64,000 nt of DNA from an uncultured Candidatus Rokubacteria bacterium (lineage in GTDB: Bacteria; Methylomirabilota; Methylomirabilia; Rokubacteriales; CSP1-6), in assembly GCA_963762145.1 (NCBI GenBank), contig CAVXJS010000011.1:512001-576000 (forward strand), written 5' to 3'. The position numbers and the translations under genes were made by a program. A model generated the notes under the pieces. That model was not told the DNA's origin, made no database searches, and saw nothing but the letters and a program-made list of their open reading frames with translations. Below, one piece after another: positions 1 to 1,369 of this stretch; position 1 is the first letter of the stretch, and each line of letters begins with the position of its first letter.

Positions 1-224
1 CGAGCCTCGAGCTGGGCGAGATCGTGATGGAGCATCTCCAGAAGCTGGACCAGGTGGCCTACGTGCGGTTCGCCTCGGTGTACCGCCAGTTCAAGGACAT
101 CTCCCAGTTCATGGACGAGGTGAAGCACCTGATCAAGGACGACAAGCCGGCGAAGGTCGCTCCCAGCAAGCCGAAGGCCTCGCGCCAAGCGGTAGACCAC
201 CCCTCACCCTGCCCTCTCCCCTGA
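1..224 (+). CDS. nrdR: Transcriptional repressor NrdR, C-terminal part (5' truncated by window)
   Basis: [28 protein letters not shown] is the NrdR ATP-cone C-terminal signature. Confidence 0.93.
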
Positions 225-237
225 GGGGAGAGGGGGA
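200..237. repeat. BoxC/REP-like palindromic repeat
   Basis: CCCCTCACCCTG-CCCTCTCCCC-TGA-GGGGAGAGGG between convergent gene ends; related copy at 6710-6745. Confidence 0.65.
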
Positions 238-1124
238 TGAGGAGGGACGGCTCTTGTAGTTGTCAGCGCCACGCCCGCGATCACGCCGCAGGCGCCGATC
301 CAGTGGTACCAGCGGATCGGCTCGCCCACCATCAGCCAGGACAGCCCCAGCACCAGGAACGGGATCAGGTTCGTGAACACCGCGGCGCGGCCCGGTCCGA
401 CCGTGCGCACCGCCTGGTAGAACGCGATGTGCGCGGGCGTCCCCAGCAGGGAGCTGTAGAGCACGACCACCACCGCCACCCACGAGGCCCCGGCGAAGCT
501 CTGCCAGGGCCGTTCCAGGAGGGCCAGCGGGAGCAGCAGGCCCGCCGCCACCACGTGGGCGCCCGCCAGCATCTGCAGCGGCGAGAAGGTGGACCGGTTG
601 GCACGGGTGTAGAGCGTGTAGGTCACCCAGAGCATCTGGGAGATCAGGATGATCACGTCGCCCCGGTTCGCCGACAGCGTCCGGAGCACATCGAGTGACC
701 CCCGTGCGATCGTGAGCACCACCGCCACCATCGTGAGCGCGATCCCGGTCAGGTTCAGGGCGGACAGGCGCTCGCGCAGCATCGCCGAAGCCGCGAGCGC
801 CACCACCACCGGCGCCGCCGCCCCGAGGATCCCCGCGTTGGCGGGGGTGGTGAACATCATGCCGGTGTACCAGAGTGTGGAGTTGCCCACGAATCCGGTG
901 ACCCCGAGCACGATCACCGCGGTCAGGTCGCGACGGGCGAGCGGCGGCAGCGGGCCCTCGAGGATGCGGGACGCGAGCATGAGCAGCGGCGCGGCGATGA
1001 GCGCGCGCAGGGCCGCGAGCGTGAGCGGTCCGAGCTCGGAGAGGCCGAGCTTGGCGAGCGGGAAGTTACCGGCCCAGATGAGGGCCACGACGAACAGGAG
1101 GAGGTAGGCGTCGCGGTGAGTCAC
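204..1124 (-). CDS. DMT/EamA family transporter
   Basis: 306 aa, about 10 TM segments, IWAGNF start motif, two EamA repeats. Confidence 0.9.
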
Positions 1125-1135
1125 GGGAGATGGAA

Positions 1136-1184
1136 CGGCCCTGCCGGGATGGGGCCGACAGGGCCGAGCGCCACGAGGGGCGCC
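1136..1184 (-). terminator. Two GC-rich hairpins directly downstream of the Lys-rich micro-ORF
   Basis: Minus strand: GGCGCC-cctcgt-GGCGCT, then CGGCCCTGTCGG-ccccatc-CCGGCAGGGCCG (12-bp stem); U-tract is weak. Confidence 0.55.
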
Positions 1185-1226
1185 TTACTTCTTCTTTTTC
1201 TTCTTCGCGGCCTTCTTCTTCGCCAT
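1185..1226 (-). CDS. 13-aa lysine-rich micropeptide MAKKKAAKKKKKK
   Basis: ATG GCG AAG AAG AAG GCC GCG AAG AAG AAA AAG AAG AAG TAA, preceded by [15 protein letters not shown] and a consensus-like promoter. Confidence 0.75.
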   Translation of the reverse strand: MAKKKAAKKKKKK

Positions 1227-1276
1227 CGTGTCACCCCCCTCCCGATCCCCGCGCGTCCGGCGGTCGATCTGTCCGG

Positions 1277-1305
1277 ACTCTAGGGGAGGGCCCAAAACGT
1301 GTCAA
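1277..1305 (-). promoter_or_regulatory. Sigma70-type promoter of the micropeptide gene
   Basis: TTGACA (1305-1300), 17-nt spacer, TAGAGT (1282-1277). Confidence 0.75.
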
Positions 1306-1369
1306 GAGGAAAATACCCGATAGAGGGGTCGTAACGCACTGCAGCCCCCACATCTTGGGGGCGGGACGG

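Follow-up and report, generated by a model that had tools for sequence, protein, structure and literature searches.

Our analysis confirmed a free-standing micro-gene on the minus strand of the window (the whole 64,000-nucleotide stretch that was analyzed, from an uncultured Candidatus Rokubacteria bacterium), which encodes the 13-residue oligolysine peptide MAKKKAAKKKKKK. Comparison of the copies establishes its anatomy, the conservation of its open reading frame (ORF) and expression signals, its multi-copy state and its independence from any one downstream gene. We give about an even chance to the reading that this is a protein-coding gene whose oligolysine product, a polycation, is itself the functional agent; in that reading, we infer that the gene is transcribed and translated, and that an abundant peptide binds polyanions.

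Anatomy of the micro-gene

A reading of the sequence alone had listed a TTGACA-17-TAGAGT promoter, a leader of about 45 nt, a 13-codon ORF with nine Lys codons, a Shine-Dalgarno (SD) sequence and a TAA stop, two GC hairpins after the stop, and a co-oriented EamA gene 60 nt downstream with no clear SD. All of these elements are present on the minus strand (Table 1).

Table 1. Coordinates of the micro-gene, its signals and its neighbors in the window
Feature	Position	Strand	Basis
Hairpin GCCCCC-AAGAUGU-GGGGGC, directly 3' of the stop codon that ends the upstream phosphoribosyltransferase gene	1344..1362	-	sequence
A/T-rich GTATTTT in 70% GC DNA, abutting the -35 box on its upstream side	1310..1316	-	sequence
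Promoter, sigma-70-type: TTGACA (1305-1300), 17-nt spacer, TAGAGT (1282-1277)	1277..1305	-	promoter scan
Predicted 5' leader, ~44 nt	1227..1271	-	start site inferred from -10 position
SD region GGGAGGGGGGTGA, 4 nt upstream of the ATG	1231..1243	-	sequence
Micro-ORF, 13 codons: ATG (1226-1224), TAA (1187-1185)	1185..1226	-	sequence
Hairpin 1: GGCGCC, loop CCUCGU, GGCGCU; first base directly after the stop codon	1167..1184	-	sequence, fold
Hairpin 2: 12-bp stem CGGCCCUGUCGG / CCGGCAGGGCCG, loop CCCCAUC	1136..1166	-	sequence, fold
Pyrimidine-rich tail UUCCAUCUCCC, from hairpin 2 to the EamA start	1125..1135	-	sequence
EamA-family (DMT) transporter gene, GTG start at 1124	204..1124	-	Pfam EamA, E = 7e-43

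The promoter scores 10/12, and a scan of positions 900-1600 returned 1 site against 0.1 expected from shuffles. Its -35 box is invariant, and its -10 box varies only among TAGAGT, TATTGT, TAAAGT, TAGCAT and TAGTGT, with TA...T kept. The A/T-rich stretch next to the -35 box (GGTATTTT) is unchanged in 15/15 same-genus loci and reads TGTATTTT or GGATTTT in more distant copies of the window-type locus (locus B); it may play a UP-element-like role. Further upstream, the hairpin behind the phosphoribosyltransferase gene retains the core CCCCAAGAT(A/G)TGGGG at most of the 15 loci of the genus, and is likely a terminator that shields the micro-gene from upstream transcription. The leader is near-invariant in the genus; in other genera its 5' half varies and its 3' half (GACGCGCGGGGATCGGGAGG) is kept.

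Each copy carries an SD of 8-13 nt matching the 3' end of the 16S rRNA of this genome, GGAUCACCUCCUUUCU. For the window copy, the 13 nt pair with this end only if four G.U pairs are allowed (by our own pairing), and the SDs of the paralogues, (GAAA)GGAGGTGA(TC), show perfect complementarity over 8-12 nt. The ORF reads ATG GCG AAG AAG AAG GCC GCG AAG AAG AAA AAG AAG AAG TAA. With 9 Lys and 3 Ala among its 13 residues, the peptide resembles a Lys/Ala-rich low-complexity DNA-binding segment in composition only.

Beyond the stop codon, hairpin 1 keeps its stem while its loop differs in sequence and length, and a G.U pair becomes A-U in one locus (L004). Hairpin 2 is more constant, with 10 of its 12 pairs identical in 20/20 aligned sequences from several genera; of the remaining two pairs, one shows a single U.G-to-U-A change and the other a single change on both sides. 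Neither hairpin occurs a second time in the genome, which rules out a dispersed-repeat origin. Hairpin 2 might act as a partial terminator or as a stabilizer; no terminator with a T-run turned up on this strand in a simple scan, and just two U follow the hairpins. The pyrimidine-rich tail may pair with the SD (GGGGGGUG : CAUCUCCC), a pairing predicted in both the MFE and the consensus fold, with one compensatory case only among 20 window-type loci. The z-score of the single-sequence fold is -1.07, and covariation across the 20 loci of the consensus fold is uninformative because hairpin 2 is nearly invariant. The EamA gene starts exactly 60 nt past the micro-ORF stop, with the tail and no SD before it, and its product has weak NCBIfam matches to amino-acid and metabolite exporters, all far below the cut-off.

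Conservation of the family and selection on its peptide

A degenerate pattern of the ORF matched once in the 6.26-Mb, 70% GC genome and its backward control matched 0 times, and only four micro-ORFs of this genome, at three places, are both Lys-rich and preceded by a GGAGGTGA-type SD. The same ORF pattern gave 0 matches in 2.9 million viral contigs. The claim that such an ORF is unlikely to be a product of chance is thus borne out, and the family is kept across the order. To follow the family in related genomes, as the sequence-only reading had proposed, we used a strict pattern (GGTGA-N3-9-RTG GCN AAR AAR AAR GCN RCN AAR AAR AAR), with its backward version as control. Of 251 genomes of the phylum, 139 contained this pattern, and nearly all of these belong, by record titles, to Rokubacteriales, the order of the window; the backward control gave 0 everywhere. 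By family, the counts were 115/158 (f1), 21/21 (f4), 1/1 (f2) and 1/68 (all other families). Many of the 43/158 f1 genomes that lack the strict pattern are incomplete MAGs, and variant copies are also possible there. A wider genome screen for micro-ORFs behind G[GA]AGGTGA re-found the known copies only, and was too noisy because GAAGGTGA is common within genes.

Among close relatives, the full region was matched in 20/20 same-genus genomes and the peptide is identical in 15/15 same-genus loci. Within the genus, conservation is higher across the entire predicted transcript, with its untranslated parts, than in the flanking genes. Throughout the order, the family takes the form MAKKKA[A/T]KKKK(K)(K), with ORF, SD, start and stop kept, a fixed and conserved K3-A-A/T-K4 spacing, and a length of 11-13 aa in 148/157 collected copies. 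Paralogues of 23-24 aa exist alongside these peptides; they matched 0 NCBIfam and Pfam families at E up to 10, and phmmer likewise found nothing similar to the 24-aa paralogue in the PDB (0 matches at E up to 10 among all chains of at least 20 residues).

Two syntenic loci, the window-type locus and a tandem locus, together hold 2-4 copies per genome. The tandem copies are followed by an intrinsic terminator and then by a convergent rpmB, with no co-oriented downstream gene, in 15/15 loci, and this locus adjoins both rpmB and relA/spoT in the same 15/15. At the window-type locus, EamA lies downstream of the micro-gene in 20/26 cases, and in 4/4 loci of family f4. The two genes, which the sequence-only reading had proposed to check for joint occurrence, thus travel together at most window-type loci and not in general: the micro-gene is kept at this locus without EamA in five lineages (L024, L026, L061, L104 and L113), is kept beside an internally shortened EamA in L076 and L095, and faces a convergent gene at the tandem loci.

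The amino acid sequence of the micro-ORF is under selection, as judged by how the copies vary. The Ala codons vary synonymously (GCG, GCC, GCT and GCA), Lys gives way only to Arg or Thr (AAG to CGG is among the changes), length variants of 11, 12 and 13 aa stay in frame, and ATG swaps with GTG. The stop codons of 38 copies are TAA in 16, TAG in 22 and TGA in 0, as compared with 59% TGA, 34% TAG and 6.6% TAA among 1995 long ORFs of the genome. It is these synonymous Ala changes, restricted Lys changes and non-TGA stops, together with the recurrence of the peptide with other codons, that place selection on the peptide.

That recurrence extends beyond the phylum, as at least 19 archaeal-labelled and at least 13 non-Rokubacteria bacterial-labelled loci, spanning 26-73% GC, encode the same peptide behind a GAGGTG-type SD. 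Copies in DPANN archaea and in other phyla are sporadic, with mixed AAA and AAG codons, and in one DPANN class the peptide is rare (3/251 sampled genomes). In the archaeal copies the SDs are of ordinary length (6-7 nt) and T-rich terminators lie downstream; the peptide sequence stays constant between phyla, whereas its nucleotides, its leader, the length of its SD and the 3' structures do not. In 14 low-GC archaeal copies, AAG makes up 51/102 Lys codons, against 229/824 in flanking Pfam-supported genes, and the longest A-run is at most 8, as expected if a translated ORF avoids slippery poly-A. Since the peptide is of low complexity, convergence may account for its presence in other phyla.

Candidate functions of the micro-gene

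In the reading that we prefer, a strong promoter of its own, an extended ribosome-binding site and 3' stabilizing hairpins would drive the micro-gene, yielding an oligolysine of 11-13 residues; the Met of the window copy would probably be removed, leaving AKKKAAKKKKKK with its nine Lys. The peptide would be an abundant, diffusible polycation that neutralizes and condenses polyanions, most likely RNA and ribosomes or DNA, and in this sense a genetically encoded stand-in for a polyamine or a histone-H1 tail. EamA would be a passenger in the lineage of the window, probably expressed through hairpin read-through. The sequence-only reading had already offered a strongly expressed, minimal histone-H1-like polycation as one of two inferences, and this part of it remains the best fit to the comparative evidence (ORF, SD, start and stop kept, codons varying, multiple copies, non-TGA stops), with strong expression and binding as its conditional part. 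A peptide of 11-13 aa may undergo fast degradation, which would count against a polycation. None of the known families of RNA- or DNA-binding proteins is matched by the 23-24-aa paralogues, an observation that sits poorly with a nucleic-acid polycation. The conserved untranslated parts and the near-invariant hairpin 2 point to a function at the RNA level that the polycation model does not explain. Across 24 public sequencing runs from 14 studies, 6 of them RNA, the share of sampled words found was 0.13-0.45 and reached half in none, and these runs gave no evidence on expression or habitat. Keyword and peptide-string literature searches found no description of such a gene.

The conserved untranslated parts bring us to an unlikely alternative, in which the function resides in the small mRNA and its translation: either a long SD would hold 30S or 70S ribosomes in the manner of rreB, or the AAG run would report Lys-tRNA supply or tRNA-Lys modification and thereby control how stable the transcript itself and its read-through products are. 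The extended SD (8-13 nt complementary to the 16S 3' end) fits this idea, as do a 5' leader and 3' hairpins that are ultra-conserved above neighboring coding sequence, and a hairpin 1 that abuts the stop codon, so that a terminating ribosome must open it. Precedents are rreB, a 165-nt mRNA that binds 30S subunits and is weakly translated (PMC5711450), and the abrB leader of B. subtilis, whose AAG-containing peptide senses MnmE-dependent tRNA modification (PMC13733827). This alternative is opposed by the persistence of the peptide across phyla that share neither its nucleotides nor its SD length, leader or 3' structures, by the ordinary SDs of the archaeal copies, by a tolerance of Lys-to-Arg changes that a Lys-codon sensor should not show, and by multiple tandem copies, which fit a need for dosage better than a sensor. 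The sequence-only reading's second inference, a Lys-sensing leader peptide controlling the EamA exporter, is very unlikely in our estimate, also when widened to a lysine- or translation-responsive attenuator that might be a lineage-specific add-on. An ORF with Lys at 9/13 codons does lie upstream of EamA with two hairpins between them, EamA has neither an SD nor room for a promoter of its own, the linkage counts given above speak for a connection, and the polycysteine uORFs reported for mycobacteria (10.1101/834739) offer a precedent for amino-acid sensing by homopolymeric-codon uORFs. Yet the micro-gene outlives the loss or shortening of EamA, the paralogous copies have no co-oriented gene to control, T-rich terminators follow the archaeal copies, Lys-to-Arg substitutions are seen, and even the best NCBIfam matches of EamA, far below the cut-off, assign it no substrate. 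Neither the single-sequence nor the consensus fold predicted a mutually exclusive terminator/antiterminator pairing; the two hairpins appear independent and hairpin 2 a stable local hairpin, and in the consensus fold the ORF start alternatively pairs with the 3' arm of hairpin 1. With rpmB converging on the tandem copies and EamA missing from five lineages that keep the micro-gene, attenuation of EamA fails as a general explanation, and the claim of a Lys-sensing leader has to be given up as the general function. Co-transcription of EamA by read-through, with a local regulatory side-effect, may still occur, because EamA is the usual neighbor and has no promoter room. A linkage of 20/26 exceeds what a pure passenger model needs.

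A different protein-level function, in which the peptide is a specific ribosomal or ribosome-associated micro-protein that fills an rRNA pocket as bL37, bS22 or Thx would, rather than a general polycation, is distinctly unlikely. Its signals resemble those of a highly expressed gene, the tandem locus adjoins rpmB and relA/spoT, the K3-A-A/T-K4 spacing is fixed, and unannotated basic ribosomal proteins of 24-33 aa provide a precedent. Against these points, rpmB is convergent and not co-transcribed, the 23-24-aa paralogues resemble nothing in NCBIfam, Pfam or the PDB chains, and a low-complexity sequence gives little binding specificity. Moreover, the sister orders, which have similar ribosomes, showed no K-rich micro-ORF in 12 rpmB neighborhoods (0/12) and carry the strict pattern in 1/68 genomes. 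We regard as highly improbable that the unit is a non-coding small RNA, or that the opposite strand carries the true gene in the form of a Leu/Phe-rich ORF, the Lys ORF being incidental in either case. The whole unit is indeed conserved at the nucleotide level, a 55-aa ORF (1116..1283, plus strand) is open in the window, and antisense ORFs span 91/99 high-GC copies. But SD, start, frame and a TAA or TAG stop are kept on the Lys strand in every copy, Ala third-position variation is non-synonymous on the opposite strand, and a spanning antisense ORF is missing from 12/31 low-GC copies and elsewhere ranges from 21 to 132 codons, so that the Leu/Phe-rich ORF is not conserved. Rfam gave nothing near the gathering score in 800-1700 and no match at the paralogous loci; it detected rRNA and tRNA only in the control locus.

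Returning to the oligolysine polycation, a broader proposal can be put forward tentatively. Prokaryotes may encode free oligolysine as the shortest known conserved free-standing coding family (11-13 codons), multi-copy and strongly expressed across Rokubacteriales and with an independent origin or spread in DPANN archaea and several other phyla; its product would be a polyamine-like counter-ion condensing RNA, DNA or polyphosphate, or else an unseen ribosomal micro-subunit. If the peptide is made, the size floor for a conserved trans-acting gene product drops to about 11 residues, and a multi-copy gene family across a major soil lineage has been missed by standard annotation. A genome-encoded oligolysine would, if true, join polyamines and nucleoid proteins as a new class of polycation in the cell, and would bear on the physical chemistry of the ribosome and nucleoid, on condensates with RNA or polyphosphate, and on simple cationic peptides as early partners of RNA.

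Comparison with known systems

Lys/Ala-rich, histone-H1-like tails are found in nucleoid proteins such as mycobacterial HupB, Chlamydia Hc1 and AlgP. The oligolysine shares with them an AKKA/AKKK-type composition and an expected non-specific neutralization of DNA charge. In these proteins the tails or repeats belong to chains about 10 times longer, some with a folded domain, whereas the micro-gene encodes one repeat-length unit: many repeats or a folded domain in at least about 100 aa characterize the H1-like class, and 148/157 copies have 11-13 aa.

Thx and eL41 are tiny basic ribosomal proteins, and bL37, bS22 and bL38 extend this group with lengths of about 24-33 aa and specific mixed sequences. 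These three are thus longer than the 11-13-aa oligolysine, with which they are compared here by sequence only. According to a report on them, bS22, bL37 and bL38 are tiny, highly basic, unannotated ribosomal proteins found only by cryo-EM, with Lys and Arg making up 61% of bS22 (10.1101/2023.04.16.537070). Very short, very basic and overlooked by annotation pipelines, they are in these respects like the oligolysine, and their presumed seat in rRNA pockets is charge-based.

With attenuator leaders (trpL-type leaders, the polycysteine uORFs and the abrB leader), the micro-gene shares a short upstream ORF of one codon type, co-oriented with the next gene and separated from it by hairpins. It differs from them in having no predicted terminator/antiterminator alternatives, in surviving the loss of the downstream gene, in having paralogues that are terminal cistrons, and in tolerating Lys-to-Arg changes.

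A further close layout is that of rreB and rreR of Alphaproteobacteria. There, rreB has a 17-nt SD and a 14-aa ORF, and the stability of its mRNA depends on the start codon (PMC5711450; Hahn et al., 2016). Like rreB and rreR, the micro-gene would form a monocistronic small mRNA of ~150-170 nt (the transcript being predicted here) with a sigma-70-type promoter, 3' hairpins, an unusually long SD, a clade-conserved ORF (13-18 codons across these genes) and equally conserved untranslated parts. The rreB SD has 16-17 nt of perfect complementarity running into a GTG start, whereas that of the micro-gene has 8-13 nt, a 4-9-nt spacer and mostly ATG; neither the window copy nor its paralogues reach at least 16 nt of perfect 16S complementarity extending to the start codon. 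RreB is described as bearing aromatic residues, and the oligolysine peptide has none; RreB and RreR have no mutual similarity in that description (PMC5711450). The micro-gene family also departs from rreB and rreR in its multiple, tandem copies and in the recurrence of its peptide in other phyla.

The micro-gene locus and its conservation within the genus

The window (C11:512001-576000) belongs to an assembly of 6.26 Mb with 70% GC. Our re-reading of its minus strand reproduced the coordinates and description that the sequence-only reading had given for the promoter, leader, Shine-Dalgarno region (SD), 13-codon micro-ORF, hairpins and EamA transporter gene. The promoter scored 10/12 in a promoter scan and was the sole site in positions 900-1600, where 0.1 was expected from shuffles; the same scan revealed no T-run terminator on the minus strand, and Rfam gave no match at the locus. 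The EamA gene (204..1124, minus) and a convergent nrdR-like ORF (24..224, plus) overlap at their 3' ends by 21 nt (window 204-224).

Features of the micro-gene locus, in order along the minus strand
Feature	Position	Strand	Basis or remark
GC hairpin directly 3' of the stop of the phosphoribosyltransferase-like gene	1362-1344	minus	sequence
A/T-rich GTATTTT stretch	1316-1310	minus	sequence
Promoter: -35 TTGACA, 17-nt spacer, -10 TAGAGT	1305-1300 (-35); 1282-1277 (-10)	minus	promoter scan
Predicted leader, ~44 nt		minus	sequence
SD GGGAGGGGGGTGA	1243-1231	minus	sequence
Micro-ORF ATG GCG AAG AAG AAG GCC GCG AAG AAG AAA AAG AAG AAG TAA	1226 (ATG); 1187-1185 (TAA)	minus	encodes MAKKKAAKKKKKK
Hairpin 1	1184-1167	minus	first base is the base after the stop codon
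Hairpin 2, 12-bp stem	1166-1136	minus	sequence
Tail UUCCAUCUCCC between hairpin 2 and EamA start		minus	sequence
EamA-family gene, GTG start	1124	minus	Pfam EamA 7e-43

A degenerate pattern of the ORF matched once in the whole window genome and its backward control not at all, which bears out the earlier claim that the micro-ORF exceeds chance. The 301-nt region was matched in 20/20 same-genus genomes (82-95% identity), and conservation in relatives, proposed earlier as a check, was found: the peptide is identical in all 15 fetched same-genus loci, the window's own included. The alignment of these loci is near-invariant from the -35 box through the end of hairpin 2. Within the ORF, codon 2 changes from GCG to GCA or GCC, one TAA is replaced by TAG, and nothing else varies; the -10 box takes only the forms TAGAGT, TATTGT and TAAAGT, and many third positions are variable in the flanking coding sequences. 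More distant window-type loci retain the A/T-rich stretch, CTTGACA, a TA...T -10 box, the SD, the ORF and both hairpins.

A micro-gene family of the Rokubacteriales

A whole-genome scan for Lys-rich micro-ORFs identified three besides the window gene, all behind an SD of GGAGGTGA type. Two form a tandem pair on contig C15, MPKRKKAVKKGGKKKATKKGKRK (23 aa) followed by MAKKKKAAKKKKK (13 aa). The former, a Lys/Arg/Gly-rich paralogue (G000:C15:112138-112209; L037:4139-4210, minus), lies directly upstream of the 13-aa copy, and similar forms of 21-24 aa occur in loci L025, L035 and a few others; the 23-24-aa paralogues have no Pfam, NCBIfam or PDB chain match. The third, MAKGRSMKKEKKKPKKEKK, is a Lys/Glu-rich ORF of 19 aa (G000:C21:997250-997309; L038:4051-4110, minus). 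Its SD shares bases with the stop codon of a 99-aa ORF lying upstream, and 6-8 nt beyond its end comes the GTG that opens an ABC-F (Uup/EttA-like) ATPase gene. This 19-aa ORF is kept in place in 14/14 same-genus loci and, unlike the window gene, has the look of an upstream ORF, poly-basic and translationally coupled to the gene of a ribosome-associated ABC-F factor.

Elsewhere in this genome, contig C9 carries 21 AAA codons (63-nt poly-A) at G000:C9:876582-876749, inside 70% GC, near two inverted copies of AGAAAGGGAGGTGA (C9:872394 and 874970), behind both of which comes the same 13-codon ORF; this region could reflect faulty assembly, foreign DNA or a repeat. A 32-aa ORF, MSWETPEFIEVKMDAEINSYQDDFEREPDDRF, behind GGGAGGTGA (G000:C10:69044, plus), presumably resembles a PqqA-type precursor peptide.

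The family occupies two kinds of locus. Locus B is the window's own (phosphoribosyltransferase, micro-ORF, EamA, convergent nrdR). Locus A holds the tandem form, and tblastn with proteins of the window genome recovered the order relA/spoT, zincin peptidase, AbiEi_2/HTH-like gene, micro-ORFs, convergent rpmB (L28) and recG in 15/15 loci. Elsewhere in the order, loci of further genera and families contain between one and three copies of MAKKKA[A/T]KKKK(K) in tandem, with a separate hairpin behind every copy. In the window genome, the locus A unit is closed by a terminator (11-bp stem plus T-run), and the stretch separating the HTH gene from the tandem micro-ORFs shows no sigma-70-like promoter. 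The AbiEi_2/HTH-like gene (L037:4244-5284, minus; Pfam 4.3e-5), immediately 5' of the micro-ORFs in all 15 loci, stands without an AbiEii-type partner in housekeeping surroundings (relA/spoT, rpmB, recG); it may act as their regulator or share a transcript with them.

A strict pattern (GGTGA, 3-9 nt, RTG GCN AAR AAR AAR GCN RCN AAR AAR AAR) was present in 139/251 genomes of the phylum, or 136/248 without the unpublished G116, G232 and G233, which all match, and its backward control in none; many genomes without a match are incomplete MAGs or carriers of variants outside the pattern. By family, it occurred in 115/158 genomes of f1 (112/155 without the unpublished ones), 21/21 of f4, 1/1 of f2, 0/1 of f3 and 0/1 of f5, and in 1/68 of the other families of the class combined. 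In the same-genus genomes G007 and G012 the region is present at 82% identity, yet the strict pattern was not matched. No K-rich micro-ORF was found near rpmB in 12 neighbourhoods of sister orders, a result independent of the unpublished G084, which enters the L28 tally only. Since the strict pattern is nearly absent elsewhere in the phylum and these neighbourhoods lack the ORF, the family is, as judged from these genomes, an innovation of the Rokubacteriales within the phylum or retained only there.

We compared the codons of 38 micro-ORFs, drawn from 22 loci that a similarity search had supplied. Ala is encoded by GCG, GCC, GCT and GCA, and Lys by AAG or AAA, with replacements solely to Arg (AGG, CGG, AGA) or Thr; the start codon is ATG or GTG, and any difference in length amounts to whole codons. 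The sequence comparison indicates that selection acts on the peptide, and we consider it probable that the ORF is translated and its product selected. Stops (TAA 16, TAG 22, TGA 0) depart strongly from those of 1995 long high-GC3 ORFs of the window genome (TGA 1181, TAG 683, TAA 131), a comparison to which no formal statistic applies because the 38 copies are related; a bias away from TGA is in the direction typical of highly expressed genes. The SDs are long, copies reaching GAAAGGAGGTGA or GGAGGTGATC, and the 16S 3' end of the window genome is GGAUCACCUCCUUUCU.

Copies of the peptide outside the Rokubacteria

We scanned one genome of each GTDB species for the exact pattern, which yielded at least 119 stretches. 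Among the matches listed, 80 loci were fetched with flanks; 76 had an in-frame ORF (85 ORFs in total), and 37 of these 76 were labelled other than Rokubacteria/Methylomirabilota. Five of these 37 (L088, L104, L106, L109 and L122) have, despite such labels, flanks of Rokubacteria type, probably through faulty binning. L088, L104, L109 and L122, titled Nitrosocosmicus, Acidoferrum and Deferrimicrobiaceae, share the Rokubacteria-type locus down to identical hairpins, at a GC content of 66-70%, and their MAGs probably contain mis-binned Rokubacteria contigs.

The other 32 of the 37 comprise 19 with archaeal labels (Woese-, Pace-, Nano-, Aenigmatarchaeota and others) and 13 bacterial ones (Brocadiales, Eisenbacteria, FCPU426, Spirochaetia, Armatimonadetes, Verrucomicrobiota, Patescibacteria and others). 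Read by eye, all 19 archaeal copies among the matches listed have a GAGGTG-like motif 5-10 nt 5' of the ATG, and T-rich sequence follows most; no SD precedes the listed bacterial copies L064, L072, L078, L092, L103 and L119, and the copy in L064 may form the end of an ORF that is longer. Neighbours vary by lineage (an M50 peptidase gene upstream in seven DPANN loci, DHH/DNA ligase in three, FtsK or SecA in bacteria), and codons differ freely from those of the Rokubacteria copies. AAG accounts for 51/102 Lys codons in 14 archaeal copies of low GC vs 229/824 in flanking Pfam-supported genes, and A-runs in these copies do not exceed 8. The exact peptide is rare in these groups, with 3/251 sampled genomes in the class holding L091 and none among 2.9 million viral contigs. 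What recurs across lineages is the peptide, rather than the RNA sequence; because the search demanded this exact peptide and the sequence is of low complexity, the recurrence may reflect shared ancestry, transfer or convergence.

Candidate functions and known counterparts

The sequence-only reading had offered a Lys-sensing leader attenuating EamA as one function. The micro-gene does travel with EamA in part: of the window-type loci with 400 nt or more of sequence downstream, 20/26 continue into full EamA, whereas EamA is internally shortened in two (L076, L095) and absent in four (L026, L061, L104, L113). These counts are not independent, some loci being the same genome fetched twice. In L024 the micro-gene leads directly to convergent nrdR, and four f4 loci have EamA behind a different hairpin. 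Given EamA in most window-type loci and in these four, it is the ancestral neighbour, and it is probably transcribed by read-through, since hairpin 2 ends so close to its start (11 nt, up to ~40 nt in some species). As the function of the family, however, attenuation fails, because the micro-gene outlives EamA, paralogues and archaeal copies have no co-oriented gene downstream, and in the predicted folds hairpin 2 forms a stable structure locally and no antiterminator competes with it; at most, attenuation could be a local add-on.

A function at the level of a small mRNA, like that of rreB, is kept alive by RNA sequence constancy, above all in hairpin 2, that exceeds what a terminator needs. 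Across 20 aligned sequences from several genera, 10/12 stem pairs of this hairpin are invariant and the other two are each altered in one sequence; neither locus-specific hairpin occurs again in the window genome, and the SD is predicted to pair with the CAUCUCCC tail, with covariation nearly nil. As described in PMC5711450, rreB is a small mRNA whose SD spans 17 nt and whose ORF encodes 14 aa; this mRNA attaches to 30S subunits, is translated weakly and has its stability governed by the start codon. However, the feature defining that class, perfect complementarity to 16S over 16 nt or more, is missing from the micro-gene.

We give about an even chance to a free-standing micro-gene, predicted to be strongly expressed, whose oligolysine product would diffuse and act as a polycation on RNA/ribosomes or DNA; its expression, abundance and binding are what we infer. 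Neither the peptide strings nor such a gene was found in a literature search that left out about 1.7 million PubMed Central articles and supplements. A precedent is given by the tiny basic ribosomal proteins bS22, bL37 and bL38, overlooked by annotation (10.1101/2023.04.16.537070); searches with the 23-24-aa paralogues, however, brought up no family or PDB chain. The closest known kinds are very small basic proteins and small mRNAs.
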